DNA of 50,874 bases from contig JBIOHJ010000003.1 of assembly GCA_044448905.1 (NCBI GenBank), positions 1 through 50,874 on the forward strand, given 5' to 3'. This DNA is from Bacteroidia bacterium. GTDB taxonomy: Bacteria > Bacteroidota > Bacteroidia > AKYH767-A > OLB10. Below are positions 8,288-42,050 of the stretch, in pieces. Each line of letters starts with the position of its first letter. The first letter of the stretch is position 1. Below the pieces are notes generated by a model. The model ran no database searches, was not told the DNA's origin, and worked only from the letters and a program-made list of their open reading frames with translations. The translations under genes and the position numbers were made by a program.

Positions 8288-9400
8288 ATGAATTCTTCAG
8301 GTGAAGATTTAAAATTAAAAATTGCGTTGACACTTATACCGGGTGTAGGGAATGTTATTGCAAAAACTTTAGTCAGCTATTGCGGAAGTGTTGAAGGCAT
8401 TTTTAAGGAAAAGAAAAAAATGCTGGAAAAAATCCCTGACATCGGCCATAAAACGGCCGAAGCAATAGTTGATTATAAGACATTTGATAAAGCGGAAAGT
8501 GAAATTGAGTTTATTGAGAAATTTAAAATCATTCCTTTATTTTATCTCGACAAAAATTATCCGCAGCGGTTAAAAAATTGTTCCGACAGCCCTGTTCTTT
8601 TATTTTATAAAGGCAGCATGGATCTGAACAAAGAAAAATTTGTTGCCATAGTGGGCACGCGTAATGCAACTGCTTACGGAAAAGAAATAACTCAAAAATT
8701 AGTTGAGGATTTGAAAAAAACAAATGCAACTATCGTGAGCGGGCTTGCTTACGGGATTGACATTTGTGCGCATAAGGCGGCACTAAAAAATGATCTGGAC
8801 ACAATCGGAGTGCTTGGTCATGGGCTGGATATTATTTATCCGCAGTTGCATCGTAATGTAGCATTAAAGATGATGGAACAAGGAGGCTTGCTCACCGAAT
8901 TTCTTTCTGAAACAAAGCCCGACAAAGAAAACTTTCCGGCACGCAACCGTATCATTGCGGGAATTTCAGATGCAGTAATTGTGGTTGAAGCAGCGAAAAA
9001 AGGCGGGGCATTAATTACAGCAGAAATTGCCAACTCGTATAACCGTGATGTTTTTGCCGTACCGGGCAGAGTAAACGATACTTTTTCGGAGGGCTGCAAT
9101 CACCTTGTCAAAATTAACAAAGCAGTATTGATTGAGTCGGCAAAAGATATTGAATACATAATGGGATGGGAGGAAAAGAAATCAAAAAAAGAAAAACAAA
9201 ACCAGCGCAGCCTGTTCATTGAGTTAAATCCTGAAGAAAAATCATTAATTGAATTATTGAACAAATCCGGTGCACTTAATATTGATTCAATTTGCAGCAA
9301 CGCATCTTTCCCGGTGAGCAAAGTTTCAGCAACATTATTAAACCTTGAATTTAAAGGAGTGTTAAAATCATTGCCCGGGAAGATGTACGAACTAATTTGA
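8288..9400 (+). CDS. dprA: DNA-processing protein DprA
   Basis: AIVGTR, IVSGLAYGID, FPARNRIIAG, GGALITA, VFAVPGR, C-terminal winged helix; start placed at ATG 8288. Confidence 0.96.
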   Translation: MNSSGEDLKLKIALTLIPGVGNVIAKTLVSYCGSVEGIFKEKKKMLEKIPDIGHKTAEAIVDYKTFDKAESEIEFIEKFKIIPLFYLDKNYPQRLKNCSDSPVLLFYKGSMDLNKEKFVAIVGTRNATAYGKEITQKLVEDLKKTNATIVSGLAYGIDICAHKAALKNDLDTIGVLGHGLDIIYPQLHRNVALKMMEQGGLLTEFLSETKPDKENFPARNRIIAGISDAVIVVEAAKKGGALITAEIANSYNRDVFAVPGRVNDTFSEGCNHLVKINKAVLIESAKDIEYIMGWEEKKSKKEKQNQRSLFIELNPEEKSLIELLNKSGALNIDSICSNASFPVSKVSATLLNLEFKGVLKSLPGKMYELI

Positions 9401-9435
9401 TTTTTAAAATAATGATTAATTTTATAAAAAATACA

Positions 9436-10338
9436 ATGAGAGTTTTCTACATAGTTTTATTTTCCCTCCTTAATTTTCCATTAAGTGCGCAAAACTATGT
9501 TCCGTTTGCTTTGGACAGTGCTGCATGGTCGGTTGACTTTATCACTCCGGGGCCATTTTCTCAGGAGTTTCATGTTCCGAGATTATATTTTATGAATGGC
9601 GATTCAGTGATCAACGGGTTGAATTACCATAAGACATACCAGTATGGAGATTCTATACCATTTAACTCAGGAGGATTGCTTACTTCCTTAATCCGTGAAC
9701 AAAACAAAATTATTTACTGCAGGTATTTTAATTGGAATAATTTTTCTTCGGAATTTGAACTTTATAATTTTAACCTGACAATTGGCGATACTTTTTCATT
9801 TCCAAACATTATTGATTCTGTTAAAATGGTTCTTATTTCTGTTGATTCAGAATATACAACAACAGGTTATCGGAAAGCTTTCAATTTTAATATTGTTTAT
9901 AATCCATCAGCAGCATTTTATATGAATCCGCGCTGGGTAGAAGGTATTGGTGATATAGTGAATGGAATTGTTTATCTGGAAGTTCCAATACTTGACTGGT
10001 GGTGTCAGGCATTGTGTTATAGCGAAAGTTATTTTTTAGTATGGAATTGGAACCAGGGCAATTGTTGGATAACGGGAATGGACGAAACGACACATTCAGA
10101 AAAAATTAAACTCTTAAATAACCCTTCCCTTGAAAAAATTCAAATTCTCTTTCCCGATAATCTTTTCATTGAAAAGGAAATCACAGTGCATGAGATTTCA
10201 GGAAAAATAGTTGGACAGTATAAATTTTATGATCAGGAATTTACATTATTTAAACATTCTCTTGGCAGAGGCATGTATTTTCTGGATATAAAATCAGGCG
10301 ATGATTTTCTTAAAACATATAAGATTATTTTTTTGTAA
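9436..10338 (+). CDS. Secreted protein of unknown function with a T9SS type-A sorting domain
   Basis: Signal peptide ending SAQ; C-terminus NNP...ISGKIV...LGRGMYFL...KIIFL; start placed at ATG 9436. Confidence 0.78.
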   Translation: MRVFYIVLFSLLNFPLSAQNYVPFALDSAAWSVDFITPGPFSQEFHVPRLYFMNGDSVINGLNYHKTYQYGDSIPFNSGGLLTSLIREQNKIIYCRYFNWNNFSSEFELYNFNLTIGDTFSFPNIIDSVKMVLISVDSEYTTTGYRKAFNFNIVYNPSAAFYMNPRWVEGIGDIVNGIVYLEVPILDWWCQALCYSESYFLVWNWNQGNCWITGMDETTHSEKIKLLNNPSLEKIQILFPDNLFIEKEITVHEISGKIVGQYKFYDQEFTLFKHSLGRGMYFLDIKSGDDFLKTYKIIFL

Positions 10339-19152: not shown

Positions 19153-20961
19153 ATGAAAACTGTATTGAAATATTTAACCGTATTGTTGATTATTTTCATC
19201 GTTTCAGGAAAATCTTTTTCTCAACCATTATCCTTTATTATTGATTCAATTAGTTTTTCATCACTGGATTTGGAAGGTGGTAAAACCATTATTACGATTG
19301 CCGATTTGAACCAGGATGGCAACCCCGATTTGTTTTCTATTGGTGACCATGGCAGTCCTTATGTGAACTCACCTCAGCATGGTATTTCTTTATGGTTTGG
19401 CAACGGTACAGGTACAGGCTGGACGTTATACCAGACAGGTGATTTTGGCTACGGAGGAATTTCGGCTGGCGATTTAAATAACGATGGATTGATGGATGTT
19501 GCTTATGGTATGCATCATAATTACTCGTCAACCGATTTTGGCGACCAACTTATTGAAGCTGCTTTAGGTGATGGCACAGGCTTTAACTGGATTCCATGGG
19601 ATGATTCGCTTGCCACTGCCGGTGAAACCTACGGCATGTTCGGTACGGATATGGGCGATGTGGATAATGACGGGTTGCTCGATATCGGCTCCACTTCATT
19701 TGGTTGCTGTGCCGGCTATCATGTATATAAAAACCTCGGTACGGGGGTGTGGCAGCATTTTTACGGGTATGTGGGTGGTAATGCTTCCAACGTATTTTTG
19801 TTTGGCGATATCAATCACGATGGGTTGTTGGATTTTGTAACCGCGCATCAAAACGGAACTCCATATTTCGGTGATGGCACCGGTAATTTTGTGCTCAGGC
19901 ATCTTAACTTACCGGCACCGGGATTAGTTGGCTTCAGCGATGTTACATTGGGTGATGTGAATAAAGACGGGGCGGATGACATTGCATTTACACAAAATAA
20001 CGGTGTGTTTGTTTACCGCTTTGATACAACAACACAGCTATGGGTAAATATGTCGGGTATATTACCCGCAAGCGGGTTTCATCCGCATGTGCGTTTGTAT
20101 GATGTGAATAATGACGGCTTCCTGGATGTAATAGCCAGCCAGGCAAACACAGTAAAAATATGGACAGGCAATGGCGGAACCGCATGGACACTGGTTAATT
20201 CCATTACAGTTTCTAATATGGATTATTCACGCAGCATGGCTGTTGGCGATGTAAATCATGACGGCAAGCCTGAAATATTTATATGGGGACAGTTTCCTAC
20301 CGGTCTTTTCAATTACGAAAACAAGCTGATGATACTGCGCGATACAGCAACTGTAAATGTTTTGAATATATATGCACTCAATCCCGTTGCTTACGAATGC
20401 CTGCCAAACGGAAGCGTGCAGTTTATTCACTGGAACAGTTCAGTGCCGGCAAATCACAGCAGCTCGGTTTCGCTTGAATTTTCCTCAACCGGGGCGGGAG
20501 GCGCATGGTCGGTAATTGCAGCGGGAGTGCCGAATAACGGAACGTATCAATGGTCGATTCCCGGTGCCATTCAATCGGCAAATTGTTTTATACGATATAT
20601 CCTTACCGATAGTGTAACACAGCAAACCGATACTGCAATTACTTCAAATCCGTTTAACATAGGGTGCGTGTTGAATACGGGAATAAGCCAGTTAACAGGT
20701 GGCAGCAGCAGTTGGCAGGTATATCCAAATCCGGCAAATGAAAGCCTCACCCTAGCCCTCTCCAAAGGAGAGGGACCGAACGCTGCCCGAAATTCCATCC
20801 TCAGAATTTTTGATTTGACCGGGAGAGAGGTTTTTCAATCTTCAATCTTCAATTTTCAATCTTCAATCAAAATTGATGTTTCCGGTTTGCAAAACGGGGT
20901 TTACTTTATCCAGTTGAATTCGGCAGAGGTTTGTTACCGGACAAAATTTGTGAAACAATAA
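19153..20961 (+). CDS. FG-GAP/VCBS-repeat beta-propeller protein with a T9SS type-A sorting domain
   Basis: Seven D-x-N-x-D-G-x-x-D-type motifs (DLNQDGNPD, DLNNDGLMD, DINHDGLLD...), Ig-like module (NNGTYQWSIP), VYPNPA...FDLTGREV...GVYF...KFVKQ. Confidence 0.9.
   Translation: MKTVLKYLTVLLIIFIVSGKSFSQPLSFIIDSISFSSLDLEGGKTIITIADLNQDGNPDLFSIGDHGSPYVNSPQHGISLWFGNGTGTGWTLYQTGDFGYGGISAGDLNNDGLMDVAYGMHHNYSSTDFGDQLIEAALGDGTGFNWIPWDDSLATAGETYGMFGTDMGDVDNDGLLDIGSTSFGCCAGYHVYKNLGTGVWQHFYGYVGGNASNVFLFGDINHDGLLDFVTAHQNGTPYFGDGTGNFVLRHLNLPAPGLVGFSDVTLGDVNKDGADDIAFTQNNGVFVYRFDTTTQLWVNMSGILPASGFHPHVRLYDVNNDGFLDVIASQANTVKIWTGNGGTAWTLVNSITVSNMDYSRSMAVGDVNHDGKPEIFIWGQFPTGLFNYENKLMILRDTATVNVLNIYALNPVAYECLPNGSVQFIHWNSSVPANHSSSVSLEFSSTGAGGAWSVIAAGVPNNGTYQWSIPGAIQSANCFIRYILTDSVTQQTDTAITSNPFNIGCVLNTGISQLTGGSSSWQVYPNPANESLTLALSKGEGPNAARNSILRIFDLTGREVFQSSIFNFQSSIKIDVSGLQNGVYFIQLNSAEVCYRTKFVKQ
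20745..20775 (+). repeat. REP-like GC-rich palindrome located in-frame in a T9SS sorting domain
   Basis: CCTCACCCTAG-CCCTCTCC-AAA-GGAGAGGG-A; perfect 8-bp stem; encodes LTLALSKGEG. Confidence 0.85.
20834..20868 (+). repeat. In-frame 7-mer array (TTCAATC)5 with one variant unit
   Basis: TTCAATC TTCAATC TTCAATT TTCAATC TTCAATC; encodes QSSIFNFQSSI. Confidence 0.9.
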
Positions 20962-22584
20962 TTACTGCTTCACAATTTTCTTTACCACTTTTCCCTCATC
21001 TGTTATCACTTCAACAAAATAAATTCCGCTTGCCCAGTTTGCAGTTTGCAGTTTACAGTTTGCAGTTGGCTCAGTAATTTTTTTTCTGAAAATTATTTCT
21101 CCCAAAACATCGGTTATAATTATTTCATCGTTTGGCTGAAATTGGAAATTTGAAATTATTAATTCATTTGAGGAGGGATTGGGGAAGATGAAGAGATGGT
21201 TTGGAGAATTCTTTTCTGCAATGTTTGTTGATGTCGGGCAAACTCCGCAGGTGGTATCTATAGTGTATTTCCAGAGATCGTTATATACACCAAAAGATGA
21301 GATGCCAGAAATACCACCGAATAAATAAAAATCTACATTGTTATTAGTCCATCCAAGTGCACCTCCTTTGGGCAATGGTTTATTTGAGGGGCTTGAAACG
21401 CCTAACATCCCCCAATCATTGGTAACAAAGGGAAAACTAAAAGTACTATCTCCGCTTATCCAAGTCCATTGCTGCGTTGACAAACAATATTTCCAAAGAT
21501 CATTTAATGGAAAAAGGGTATATCCTCCATAGAACCAAAAATTTCCACCAAGGTCCTTCCAAACTGCCCGACTCTCAATACGAACCGGGGGAACGTTATT
21601 TGTTGAAGCCACACATTGAGTACCATAAATTCCATTAAAGTTTATGATAGTATCACCGCCCATCCATGCCCAGTTGTTTGTTATTGGATTAAATCGCCAC
21701 ATATCGCTTTTAGAAGTCCCATATTCCCATCCATTAAATAACCAGAAGTTACCAATATCATCTTTCCATTTGGAATAAGCCCTTCGCCCTCCTGGTGTGT
21801 TGGCAGGATCTTCAATCGATTCTGTTCCGTAAAAGCTCGGTTGATTTCCAGATGATGAGCCCTTCATCCATGTCCAGGTATTTGTTACAATATTATATCT
21901 CCATAAATCATTTAAAAAGTCAAGGGAATCACTTCCACCAAAAAGCCATAAATCCCCATTATTATCTGTCCAACTTATTGCAGTTTCACATCTTGACCTT
22001 GGATAATTCAATACGTTAGGAACTCCGATTATTCCATAAATGCCGGGTTGATTTGGGATATTCGGTCCTTTCATCCATGTCCATTCATTTGTTATCGGAT
22101 CATATTTCCAAAGATCATTATAAACTGTATAGGCAGAATCTGATTTTAATCCTCCAAACATCCAAAAGTTTCCTTGTAAATCAACCCATGAAACTGCTCC
22201 CCATCCTCGCGAAGGTGGATTATTAATTGGAGAAGGGATACCTTGTATTCCGTAATTACCCAGATCACCCCCAATACCCGAGCCTTTCATCCAAGTCCAT
22301 TCATTGTTTGTTGGATTATATTTCCAAAGATCATTAAACTCCTGTTTAGGAATTTGATTCCAATTGGTTCCGCCAAACAACCAGAAATTGCCGTTTAAGT
22401 CAGTCCATTCACAAGCTTCATACACGGCACGAGGCTTATTTGATGGACTTGATACCCCTTGAATTCCATAATAGCCTGTTGAGTTTGGAATACTATCTCC
22501 GTGTATCCATACCCATTCACCTACCTGCGAAAAGCAAAGTGTAATTGAAAAACAAAAAATAAATGTGGTAAATATTTTTTTCAT
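20962..22584 (-). CDS. Kelch/galactose-oxidase-type repeat protein with a T9SS type-A sorting domain
   Basis: Six repeats of F/LWxFGG...NDLWKY...WTWMKG; FIFPNPS...DVLGE...SGIYFVEV...KKIVKQ; start placed at ATG 22584 because the ORF-track TTG lies inside a TACCTTTG promoter element. Confidence 0.9.
   Translation of the reverse strand: MKKIFTTFIFCFSITLCFSQVGEWVWIHGDSIPNSTGYYGIQGVSSPSNKPRAVYEACEWTDLNGNFWLFGGTNWNQIPKQEFNDLWKYNPTNNEWTWMKGSGIGGDLGNYGIQGIPSPINNPPSRGWGAVSWVDLQGNFWMFGGLKSDSAYTVYNDLWKYDPITNEWTWMKGPNIPNQPGIYGIIGVPNVLNYPRSRCETAISWTDNNGDLWLFGGSDSLDFLNDLWRYNIVTNTWTWMKGSSSGNQPSFYGTESIEDPANTPGGRRAYSKWKDDIGNFWLFNGWEYGTSKSDMWRFNPITNNWAWMGGDTIINFNGIYGTQCVASTNNVPPVRIESRAVWKDLGGNFWFYGGYTLFPLNDLWKYCLSTQQWTWISGDSTFSFPFVTNDWGMLGVSSPSNKPLPKGGALGWTNNNVDFYLFGGISGISSFGVYNDLWKYTIDTTCGVCPTSTNIAEKNSPNHLFIFPNPSSNELIISNFQFQPNDEIIITDVLGEIIFRKKITEPTANCKLQTANWASGIYFVEVITDEGKVVKKIVKQ
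21035..21069 (-). repeat. In-frame 7-mer array (CAAACTG)5, degenerate
   Basis: Plus strand CAGTTTG CAGTTTG CAGTTTA CAGTTTG CAGTTGG; encodes PTANCKLQTAN. Confidence 0.9.
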
Positions 22585-22705
22585 CCCATTTAATTTATCC
22601 CAATAAATTCCCTCACCCAAAGGTAAGCTAATTCATTTATCCAACGTAGCTATTTTTTAGAGTAGTTGGACAATGCATAATTCAGCAATCATTTAACCCT
22701 TTTCA

Positions 22706-40820: not shown

Positions 40821-42050
40821 ATGAAAAAAAATTACTTACTGTTTACTGCGTTTTTATTTTTTGTTTCGCAAAATATATTTGCGCAGATTGATACATCGGG
40901 AGGAAGATATTACCAGGAGCTTTTTACCAATGTTACCGTTACTTCAAATATCGCTTATGGAAGCAATGTAAAATACAACGGGCAAACACAAACCCTGCTG
41001 ATGGATATTTATGAGCCGACAGGCGATACGGTACAATTGCGCCCGTTAATTGTACTGGCTCATGGTGGGAGTTTTATAGGAGGCACCAAAACAGATGGCG
41101 ATGTAACCACCCTGTGTACCCGCTTTGCTAAAATGGGCTATGTAACCGCTTCGATTGAATACCGCATCGGGATGTTTCCAATTGATTCGGTAAACGCAAT
41201 TAAAGCAGTGCTGCGCGCCACACAGGATATGAAAGCGGCCGTACGTTGGTTCAGGCAGGATGCTGCGGGTGCAAACACGTATGGCATACATACCAATTAT
41301 ATTTTTATTGGCGGAAGCTCGGCAGGCGCGTTTATGGCATTGCACCATGCTTACATGGATAAAGTTTCGGAATTTCCGCTTGGCGCAACTACATTAAGTT
41401 CGATGGGAGGACTGGAGGGAACCAGCGGCAACCCGGGCTGGTCAACAAGTGCACTGGCAGTTATAAATTTATGCGGAGCACTTGGCGATTCATCTTATCT
41501 GGAAGCGGGCGATATTCCGTTGGTGAGCATGCACGGAACCAATGACGGAATAGTTCCTTATGGTTCAGCAATTATTACAATTGTTATTTTCCAGATTATG
41601 GAAGTGGATGGCAGCGCTTCAATAAAAGCAAGAGCTGATAATTTAGGAATTCTAAACCCATTTTATACCTTTATCGGTGCTGACCATGTTCCGTATGCAG
41701 GTGGCGGTGCTGTACCGGCTGCTTACATGGATACTACAGTTTGGTTTATACGCGATTTCCTGCGCCCTTTTCTCGGCATACCTGCGCCAACGACAGTTGA
41801 TGATAATAATTTGGACAATGCGTTTGGGGTTTTCCCAAACCCATCAGAAGGAGTGTTTCATATTGTAATTGAAAATTTTAAAATAAATTTAACCGGACTG
41901 ATTACAGATTTATCAGGAAGAACTATTGACAGGTTTACAATAGGTCAAGCAAATTACTCTTATTCAAGCTCTCTTGCAAAAGGAATTTATCTTCTGAAAA
42001 TATCGGGGGAAAATAATTACAGCGTAGTAAAGAAAATTGTTGTTGAATAA
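40821..42050 (+). CDS. Secreted alpha/beta-hydrolase (carboxylesterase-like) with a T9SS type-A sorting domain
   Basis: HGGSF oxyanion motif, GSSAG nucleophile, HGTNDGIVP, GADHVP; VFPNPS...DLSGR...KGIYLL...KKIVVE. Confidence 0.92.
   Translation: MKKNYLLFTAFLFFVSQNIFAQIDTSGGRYYQELFTNVTVTSNIAYGSNVKYNGQTQTLLMDIYEPTGDTVQLRPLIVLAHGGSFIGGTKTDGDVTTLCTRFAKMGYVTASIEYRIGMFPIDSVNAIKAVLRATQDMKAAVRWFRQDAAGANTYGIHTNYIFIGGSSAGAFMALHHAYMDKVSEFPLGATTLSSMGGLEGTSGNPGWSTSALAVINLCGALGDSSYLEAGDIPLVSMHGTNDGIVPYGSAIITIVIFQIMEVDGSASIKARADNLGILNPFYTFIGADHVPYAGGGAVPAAYMDTTVWFIRDFLRPFLGIPAPTTVDDNNLDNAFGVFPNPSEGVFHIVIENFKINLTGLITDLSGRTIDRFTIGQANYSYSSSLAKGIYLLKISGENNYSVVKKIVVE

Follow-up and report, generated by a model that had tools for sequence, protein, structure and literature searches.

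The window analysed here, the whole stretch of 50,874 nucleotides from position 1 of contig JBIOHJ010000003.1, comes from the chromosome of a Bacteroidota bacterium and has a G+C content of 38.5%. In two of its genes, which lie tail to tail and encode type IX secretion system (T9SS) cargo proteins, part of the DNA for the C-terminal sorting domain (CTD) is spelled by tandem repeats of a 7-base unit. These arrays are probably inherited, in-frame heptanucleotide microsatellites, native to the sorting domain of T9SS type A and homogenised by slippage at a fixed length. The genes, domains and repeats concerned are the following, with the evidence for each in brackets.

19153..20961, + strand: gene A, FG-GAP/VCBS repeat cargo protein of 602 aa (open reading frame (ORF), translation, Pfam, TIGR04183)
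20719..20958, + strand: sorting domain of gene A, aa 523-602 (Pfam, TIGR04183, CTD profile)
20756..20774, + strand: perfect hairpin CCCTCTCC-AAA-GGAGAGGG with an 8-bp stem and a 3-nt loop, encoding part of LALSKGEG, after the first CTD strand (sequence)
20834..20868, + strand: array A, (TTCAATC)5 in which one unit is variant, read in frame as FQSSIFNFQSSI (Tandem Repeats Finder (TRF), lag-7 self-matches)
20962..22620, - strand: gene B, Kelch beta-propeller cargo protein of 552 aa from a TTG start (ORF, Pfam, TIGR04183)
20965..21189, - strand: sorting domain of gene B, aa 478-552 (Pfam, TIGR04183, CTD profile, AlphaFold2 model)
21035..21069, - strand: array B2, (CAAACTG)~5 as read on the coding strand, with the peptide PTANCKLQTANW at strand beta4 and the beta4-beta5 loop (TRF, self-matches)
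21137..21157, - strand: array B1, three ATTTCAA-type units encoding ISNFQFQ, the end of strand beta1 (TRF, peptide fit)

Heptanucleotide arrays in two T9SS cargo genes

By their profile matches, both genes end in a type A T9SS sorting domain (TIGR04183 / PF18962 Por_Secre_tail). The protein encoded by gene A matches FG-GAP_3 (1.2e-29) and Por_Secre_tail (5.5e-14) in Pfam, as well as TIGR04183 (8.8e-13 over aa 523-602 of 602), while in the gene B product the TIGR04183 match covers aa 478-552 of 552, i.e. the extreme C-terminus. The curated cut-offs of 27 bits for PF18962 and 23 bits for TIGR04183 are exceeded by gene A (52.7 and 48 bits, respectively) and by gene B (48.8 and 47.9 bits). Both translated proteins have hydrophobic N-termini, and the two genes converge with abutting stop codons.

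TRF called array A with period 7, 5.0 copies, 92% matches and a score of 63, and array B2 (21035-21067, + strand unit CAGTTTG) with period 7, 4.7 copies and a score of 59. These are the two top scores among the 45 TRF rows of the window. The shorter array B1 (21138-21157) was called with period 7, 2.9 copies and a score of 33. Among 100 windows simulated with a first-order Markov model, one array scoring at least 59 appeared in five, whereas two such arrays, or a period-7 array of at least 50, appeared in none. A scan for at least 18 self-matches in 21 bases returned three loci in the window at lag 7 (arrays A and B2 and an intergenic array at 892-923), none at lags 4-6 and 8-11, and none in 100 simulations. 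Both long arrays have 19 of 21 lag-7 self-matches, against 9 and 11 of 21 in the other two CTDs of the window (10120-10335 and 41832-42047), which are without a period-7 signal. Copies of the two long-array units were not found elsewhere in the window.

These results bear out much of the original prediction, made from the letters of this DNA, which had reported two long period-7 arrays and a short one at 21137-21157 in a tail-to-tail pair of T9SS cargo genes and the lack of such repeats in two other T9SS genes. Its observations were largely right and its interpretation is partly supported. A further set of "CAGTTRR" units that it placed at 20689-20718 did not hold up, as TRF made no call there and the encoded peptide is not 7-periodic (8 mismatches). 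It had also described the repeats of the two genes as unrelated, which is doubtful rather than disproved: in the best register the units are CTTCAAT in gene A and CTGCAAA in gene B, which match each other at 5/7 positions and each differ at 1/7 from CTTCAAA, the consensus unit of the sorting-domain subfamily described below. By our own rough estimate, as opposed to a tool result, the 5/7 match between the units of arrays A and B2 is non-significant. A shared reading frame was considered as an argument for the kinship of these two arrays and was dropped, since a 7-base repeat yields one cyclic peptide regardless of frame.

The intergenic array at 892-923, (AAACTTT)2(AAACCTT)2, lies between divergent genes, ~20-50 nt upstream of the start codon of phosphoglycerate kinase, and has 20/21 lag-7 self-matches. 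Its units are CTTTAAA and CCTTAAA, with a unit 1/7 off the consensus of the CTD subfamily.

The arrays encode native strands of the sorting domain

We aligned both CTDs with a profile built from 143 other tails, from which the window proteins and their closest homologs had been left out. The profile aligns with both domains end to end, the residues encoded by the repeats occupy match states, and both CTDs are 3 residues shorter than the profile at the place of the repeats. The sole insertion relative to the profile consists of 4-5 residues after SKGEG, the site of the hairpin in gene A, and is common to P0003, the closest relative of gene A. On the profile, arrays A and B2 overlap by ~5/12 codons, so the earlier placement of the repeats of both genes at the same two spots of the domain is approximate, although both CTD sites do recur in relatives.

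P0003 is 79% identical to the gene A product and equal in length at every repeat site. At array A, gene A has FQSSIFNFQSSIKID where P0003 has LQSSVVSGLLSFKIN, and at the hairpin site LALSKGEGP corresponds to LTLPSFDGG. The P0003 peptide at array A, LQSSVVSGLLS, fits a different 7-base unit with 4 mismatches. Identity is 428/510 in the body of the two proteins, against 5/12 in the array, 5/17 in the hairpin patch (aa 534-550) and 3/12 in the linker before the CTD, and in this alignment these three segments are hot spots of divergence. For gene B, the homolog P0146 (57% identity) keeps the length and much of the peptide (PTANCKLQTANWASG in gene B and PTSNVQLQTTNFSNG in P0146): the array B2 peptide is conserved as PTSNVQLQTTNF, and at the array B1 site ISNFQFQ corresponds to ISNFNFQ.

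An AlphaFold2 model of the gene B CTD, computed from 38 aligned sequences (pLDDT 89.8), has six strands at residues 9-17, 22-27, 32-37, 42-48, 55-62 and 67-74. In this model array B2 corresponds to strand beta4 (TANCKLQ, T42-Q48) and the following loop, and array B1 to I12-Q18 at the end of beta1. Foldseek matches of the model include the solved T9SS substrate CTDs 8glk_D (TM 0.79), 8qb1, 8gl6_D and 7pq4, with E-values between 2e-3 and 3e-2. The domain thus models as an immunoglobulin (Ig)-like beta-sandwich like these solved CTDs.

Because the match states are filled, no length is added and the closest homologs are equal in length, the arrays are, by alignment, in-frame coding parts of the sorting domain and not the insertions as which they had first been described.

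A sorting-domain subfamily with a 7-base signature in its peptides

A phmmer search with the 75-aa CTD of gene B against 1.84 billion representatives gave 1730 matches with E<=1e-3. The parent proteins of the best 150 of these 1730 range from 59 to 1811 aa. Together with P0002 and P0146, the best 150 made a set of 152 sequences, 140 of which could be anchored on PNP and GxY. For each peptide we took the fewest base mismatches to any perfect 7-base repeat under free codon choice, a measure that is a lower bound, as the most favourable codons are assumed.

In the 140 anchored sequences the consensus before GIYF is T-S-N-[LFC]-K-[LI]-[QND]-T-S-N-[LFW], and the array B2 pattern PT[SL]N[FLC]KLQT[SL]NF extends across the subfamily. 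The peptide TSNFKLQTSNF can be spelled by (ACTTCAA)n without a mismatch, as can ISNFKFQ by (ATTTCAA)n. The peptides of the window itself come close, with 1 mismatch for TANCKLQTANW of gene B (ACTGCAA), 2 for FQSSIFNFQSS of gene A and 1 for the array B1 peptide to (ATTTCAA)n. Along the domain, the mean minimum number of mismatches is 10-11.5 and falls to 6.9 at array B2 and to ~8 at the position of array B1. Taking the best of four offsets, 37/140 sequences (the window's own included) fit with at most 3 mismatches in 33 bases, representing 17 canonical units, against 0/2800 shuffled peptides. At a fixed offset over 12 aa, and leaving out the window protein and P0146, 20/138 do so, against a mean of 0.21 and a maximum of 2 in 200 column shuffles, a comparison that overstates significance for reasons given below. 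Periods 4, 5 and 8 gave 0/138 in the same test. At the array B1 site of relatives, 8/135 fit with at most 3 mismatches, against 0.01 in column shuffles.

The residues of the segment vary together in a manner that follows the bases. Where residue 2 has a codon with G in first place (A/V/E/D/G, n=29), residue 4 has a codon with G in second place (C/W/R/G) in 14 sequences; where residue 2 is S or L (n=65), this is the case in at most 1. As read from these peptides, the covariation of codons 2 and 4 acts at the base level. Moreover, of the 108 relatives that are at least 6 mismatches off the consensus unit, 10 fit another unit with at most 3 (column shuffles: mean 0.07, max 1), for example TENCKLKTENW, TSELRLQTSDL, SSDFRLPTSDL and CSMFNVQCSTL. 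In 85 of 137 sequences DxxG and GxY are 25 aa apart, in 32 they are 23 aa apart, and no in-frame length classes of +/-7 residues occur among these 137. Judged by codon fit, then, the unit drifts across the subfamily while the 7-base periodicity and the length of the segment are fixed. We infer that the DNA of these relatives would itself be repetitive.

Por_Secre_tail was found in 20/20 array-bearing relatives that were checked, and their recognisable cargo domains are Kelch, Reg_prop, BNR-type, DUF5122, fn3/Ig and M4 peptidase. The predicted CTD of gene B is thus placed by these matches in a widespread subfamily that is carried by varied cargo and whose hallmark peptide is a reading of (ACTTCAA)n / (ATTTCAA)n.

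Period-7 peptides in the tails and signal peptides of cargo homologs

A second set, independent of the CTD search, consisted of 239 homologs of both cargo proteins, picked by their N-terminal domains. Windows of peptide with at most 3 mismatches numbered 27/20315 in the last 95 residues (14 proteins), 11/7170 in the first 30 residues (from 5 proteins, of which four are paralogs that have a motif in common) and 2/131977 in the rest of the protein (1 protein). The odds ratios against the middle are ~88 for the C-terminal and ~101 for the N-terminal part, in counts that are not independent, as the windows overlap and the proteins are related. In the FG-GAP subset, periods 4 and 5 gave 0 windows, and period 8 gave 1 in tails and 1 in bodies. 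At the peptide level, the signature thus holds specifically for period 7 and for the two regions predicted to be cleaved off these cargo proteins as targeting signals. The original prediction that sorting-domain DNA is a target for repeats is in this respect borne out, as the domain is a preferred home of 7-base repeats (27/20315 against 2/131977 windows); the notion of a landing pad is not, as the arrays fill match states of the domain.

The five proteins with N-terminal matches are Kelch homologs of gene B (P0179, P0181, P0191, P0198 and P0189), whose residues 5-22 contain 7-residue periodic stretches (LIFNFAFLIFN, FLIINCQLLIVNC) with 2-3 mismatches; the four cases with one shared motif probably represent one event. 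Two DNA loci from metagenome-assembled genomes (MAGs) carry perfect arrays near the 5' ends of Kelch or FG-GAP genes. In a Bacteroidetes MAG (L007, 4819-4889), a perfect (TGCAACC)3.7 array and a (TGCCTAC)3.7 array lie in the signal-peptide coding part, with the peptide FATCNLQPA...ANCLLPTA, of a gene for a 677-aa protein that has Kelch and Ig_7 domains as well as a Por_Secre_tail match below threshold (24.8 bits, cut-off 27). The unit TGCAACC is 1/7 off that of gene B. A 22-base element beside these arrays was considered as a repeat family and rejected, being single copy. In a Nitrospirae MAG (L012, 9764-9818), an FG-GAP homolog has a perfect (GACAGAG)7.9 array at its extreme 5' end or immediately upstream of it.

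Among the Kelch paralogs, the CTDs of P0168, P0173, P0174, P0178, P0188, P0195 and P0198, compared with their paralogs, have two versions of the segment after a conserved LG (KQIYFSKEE...GKFEKEINVEK and EVQLFQSF.../QLQLFQSF...). This pattern suggests block replacement at that region of the CTD.

Probable slippage at fixed length and its alternatives

A 7-base repeat read in triplets would give the same cyclic heptapeptide in all three frames, so a slip would keep the peptide of the array and alter only the residues after it. When the unit number is changed by one in either direction, the computed products are 585 and 576 aa long for gene A (602 aa intact) and 535 and 524 aa long for gene B (552 aa intact), and all of them are without GxYF...KxVKQ, the distal half of the CTD. 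The prediction that gain or loss of a unit frameshifts the secretion signal thus holds, by computation, for both genes. Repeated replication slippage would homogenise the array: the loss of one unit followed by the gain of one would replace a unit by a copy of its neighbour, given that no length but the original one is in frame and tolerated. Off-frame intermediates would occur along the way. With each slip the distal half of the CTD would be removed, and the cell would synthesise the cargo without exporting it until another slip restored the frame. We infer that a change of one unit would entail loss of export, and a plausible corollary is that slippage of the arrays would act as an on/off switch of secretion. 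We favour recurrent, homogenising slippage because periodicity is kept while the unit drifts at constant length, because the array is a hot spot of divergence and because P0003 fits another unit.

Several observations weigh against this account. DNA-level repetition in sorting domains was seen in this window only, and the relatives were read at the level of peptides. In the 37 other CTDs with DNA, none of which belongs to the gene B subfamily, no strong period-7 signal was found (max 13/21). The 641 kb covered in all contain 363 TRF arrays, of which 8 fall within CTDs (5.3 expected), three of those 8 belonging to the window; TRF enrichment was not seen in the CTD DNA of the 37 other loci, where none of the 5 CTD arrays outside the window is a strong period-7 array. 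The best matches of the subfamily search were picked by similarity to a repeat-coded query and the sequences are related, so the column shuffles overstate significance. No off-frame or +/-3-unit alleles occur among the subfamily sequences. Arrays A and B2 are short and impure, with a longest perfect run of ~20 bases each, and given so little uninterrupted repeat slippage may at present be rare in them. Finally, of 51 candidates from a word-index search with the gene A CTD (residues 521-602), a single one besides the query reached E<=1e-3, so that array A has no known family beyond P0003. Searches for DNA of relatives added little: a scan of genome contigs with gene A gave 50% identity for the best relative and no close DNA homolog, and tblastn of the gene B CTD against plasmids gave two matches of ~30% identity, neither in the subfamily.

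The account of slippage at fixed length can be extended to adaptive phase variation, in which the arrays would be contingency tracts and a reversible change of one unit would switch cargo between exported and non-exported states via the distal CTD. In its broadest form, which we put forward tentatively, T9SS cargo across Bacteroidota and relatives would carry heptanucleotide contingency tracts in both the Sec signal peptide and the CTD, one-unit slips would toggle export or surface attachment while synthesis is kept, and the subfamily motif would be the protein shadow of a maintained microsatellite. In line with a switch, the 7-base unit is not divisible by 3 and both proteins end short of GxYF...KxVKQ once a unit is gained or lost, and cycles of off and on states would yield what the subfamily presents, namely kept periodicity, changing units and a fixed length. 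The concentration of period-7 peptides in signal peptides as well (11/7170 N-terminal against 2/131977 middle windows) and the arrays at the 5' ends of the L007 and L012 genes fit such a role. However, the arrays have only ~5 units, with variant units inside and ~20 bases as the longest perfect run, and no off alleles are present among the sequences compared. Four of the five signal-peptide cases are paralogs with one motif and hence few independent events, and the enrichment could also arise, in the absence of selection for switching, if cleaved targeting peptides are under relaxed constraint. Selected switching is possible on these grounds, but we hold it to be doubtful.

Alternatively, the arrays could be a frozen relic, in which one ancient expansion made the strands, later selection acted at the protein level only, and the DNA periodicity is a leftover or coincidental codon choice without ongoing slippage. 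The constant length of the segment and the conservation of the peptide in P0146, at 57% identity, agree with this, as do the imperfection of the arrays and the lack of periodicity in the other CTDs with DNA. A relic would, however, be expected to decay at synonymous sites, yet both long arrays retain 19/21 lag-7 self-matches. Different units with coordinated changes at multiple residues stay periodic (10/108 against 0.07), codons 2 and 4 covary at the base level, and between homologs of 79% identity the array is a hot spot (5/12 against 428/510) in which the P0003 peptide fits another unit with 4 mismatches. We therefore regard a frozen relic as unlikely.

The original prediction had explained the repeats as unrelated mobile or REP-like (repetitive extragenic palindromic) elements that landed in permissive spots of the CTD and promoted shuffling of the domain among cargo genes. 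In its favour are the ~90-fold enrichment of repeat-type peptides in CTDs relative to cargo bodies, the hairpin of gene A with the 4-5 extra residues that follow its site in gene A and P0003, and the presence of one CTD subfamily on many cargo types. For the two long arrays, insertion is already contradicted, as they fill match states without added length, have closest homologs of equal length and encode core strands with pLDDT >90. The gene A hairpin is single copy in the window, and the arrays share no long identical stretch on which recombination could act. Nothing speaks for repeat-driven shuffling, and the model as a whole is very improbable. Pure selection at the protein level for a 7-residue periodic beta-strand motif, with incidental DNA periodicity, is equally improbable, for although the arrays encode beta-strands and similar peptides occur at the two sites (ISNFKFQ / TSNFKLQ), a 7-residue repeat needs only a 21-base periodicity whereas the peptides fit a 7-base one, the linkage of S/L with F and of A/V/E with C tracks shared bases and not residue chemistry, and periods 4, 5 and 8 give nothing.

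Hairpins and other features of the window

The perfect hairpin at 20756-20774 had been described as REP-like. The hairpin itself is real, but it is single copy in the 50.9-kb window and its stability is not unusual (z -1.66). Perfect 8-bp hairpins number 11 in the window against 10.8 expected, and a GC-rich one such as this is expected 0.10 times. At the matching site, P0053, P0058, P0024 and P0027 have the odd peptides NVETRHGVSLQ, PSKGDRGMNV, LNEGLPASRW and KLGFGIWNLEF, respectively, some of which may resemble readings of palindromic DNA.

A second inverted repeat joins the ends of the two genes:

20948..20975, no strand assigned: stop-to-stop hairpin formed by the last codons (VKQ) and the abutting stops of both genes (inverted repeat, fold test)

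It has 18-nt arms that are 83% complementary and 0 nt apart, 12 pairs, and A/T runs at its flanks. On the - strand it is terminator-like (z -3.70), and 0/200 shuffles fold as well. Because there is no intergenic DNA between genes A and B, this hairpin may serve as their shared terminator. It is the sole exception to an otherwise negative search for promoters and terminators, in which the arrays and the gene A hairpin gave nothing above shuffles. RNA structure was not found in the arrays either (z +0.52 and +0.01).

Elsewhere the window holds housekeeping genes and genes for TonB-dependent receptors and for GldH, a gliding/T9SS lipoprotein that alone of the T9SS machinery was recognised in it. 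The home-made CTD profile finds four CTDs, those of genes A and B, one at 41832-42047 and a weak one at 10120-10335. The last of these is the C-terminus (E 5e-6) of an ORF at 9397-10338 (313 aa) that has no Pfam match at E<=1e-5 and may be the fourth T9SS cargo gene named in the original prediction. As for the start of gene B (22584-22620), the database record P0122 has 540 aa, against 552 aa from the listed TTG, which would fit an ATG start 12 codons downstream of the TTG (MKKIF...). A 14-base repeat of 1.9 copies (TRF) lies just upstream of this alternative ATG, at 22583-22609.

Relation to known systems and implications

With both genes above the cut-offs, the domains at the C-terminus, the modelled fold of gene B and GldH in the window, the two CTDs resemble known type A domains (TIGR04183 / PF18962). 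They differ in that tandem repeats of a 7-base unit make up two of the segments that code for strands, and that the motif of the gene B subfamily equals a reading of the repeat. Contingency loci built from simple sequence repeats are known from other bacteria, such as the pentamers in the signal-peptide coding part of Neisseria opa and the tetranucleotides in Haemophilus genes. As in those loci, the repeat here lies within the ORF, its unit is not a multiple of three and a change of one unit shifts the frame. In contrast, the tract here lies in a C-terminal secretion tag, where a slip would abolish export and not synthesis, and it is short (~5 units), fixed in length across the subfamily and encodes folded strands. 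With REP-type palindromic repeats the gene A CTD shares a perfect 8-bp hairpin, which differs from them in being single copy in 50.9 kb, in frame and of ordinary stability, and no hairpin-specific insertion is present relative to the 79% identical P0003. Coding sequence can also be born from microsatellite expansion, and the peptide motif here is likewise what a short DNA unit spells in all three frames; here, however, the repeat is found inside an old, widespread and structured domain, and its periodicity appears to be maintained and not to decay.

Judged by titles and the opening parts of abstracts, none of the papers listed in searches of the literature links T9SS sorting domains to heptanucleotide, simple-sequence or slipped-strand repeats, and none joins type IX secretion, phase variation and tandem repeats. 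Non-triplet microsatellites built natively into the coding DNA of secretion signals look like a new pattern.

If the signature holds at the DNA level, a subfamily of T9SS tags would be encoded by a non-triplet microsatellite that is periodic across many lineages and cargo types, and a maintained repeat is unexpected for a folded and conserved domain. It would raise the question of whether slippage of DNA switches the export, and not the expression, of individual T9SS cargo. For annotation, T9SS cargo genes recorded as "frameshifted" may be off-phase alleles, and the motif of a domain family may reflect the dynamics of a DNA repeat and not function. The two arrays would also offer a natural example of a repeat that yields the same cyclic peptide in three frames inside a protein fold.

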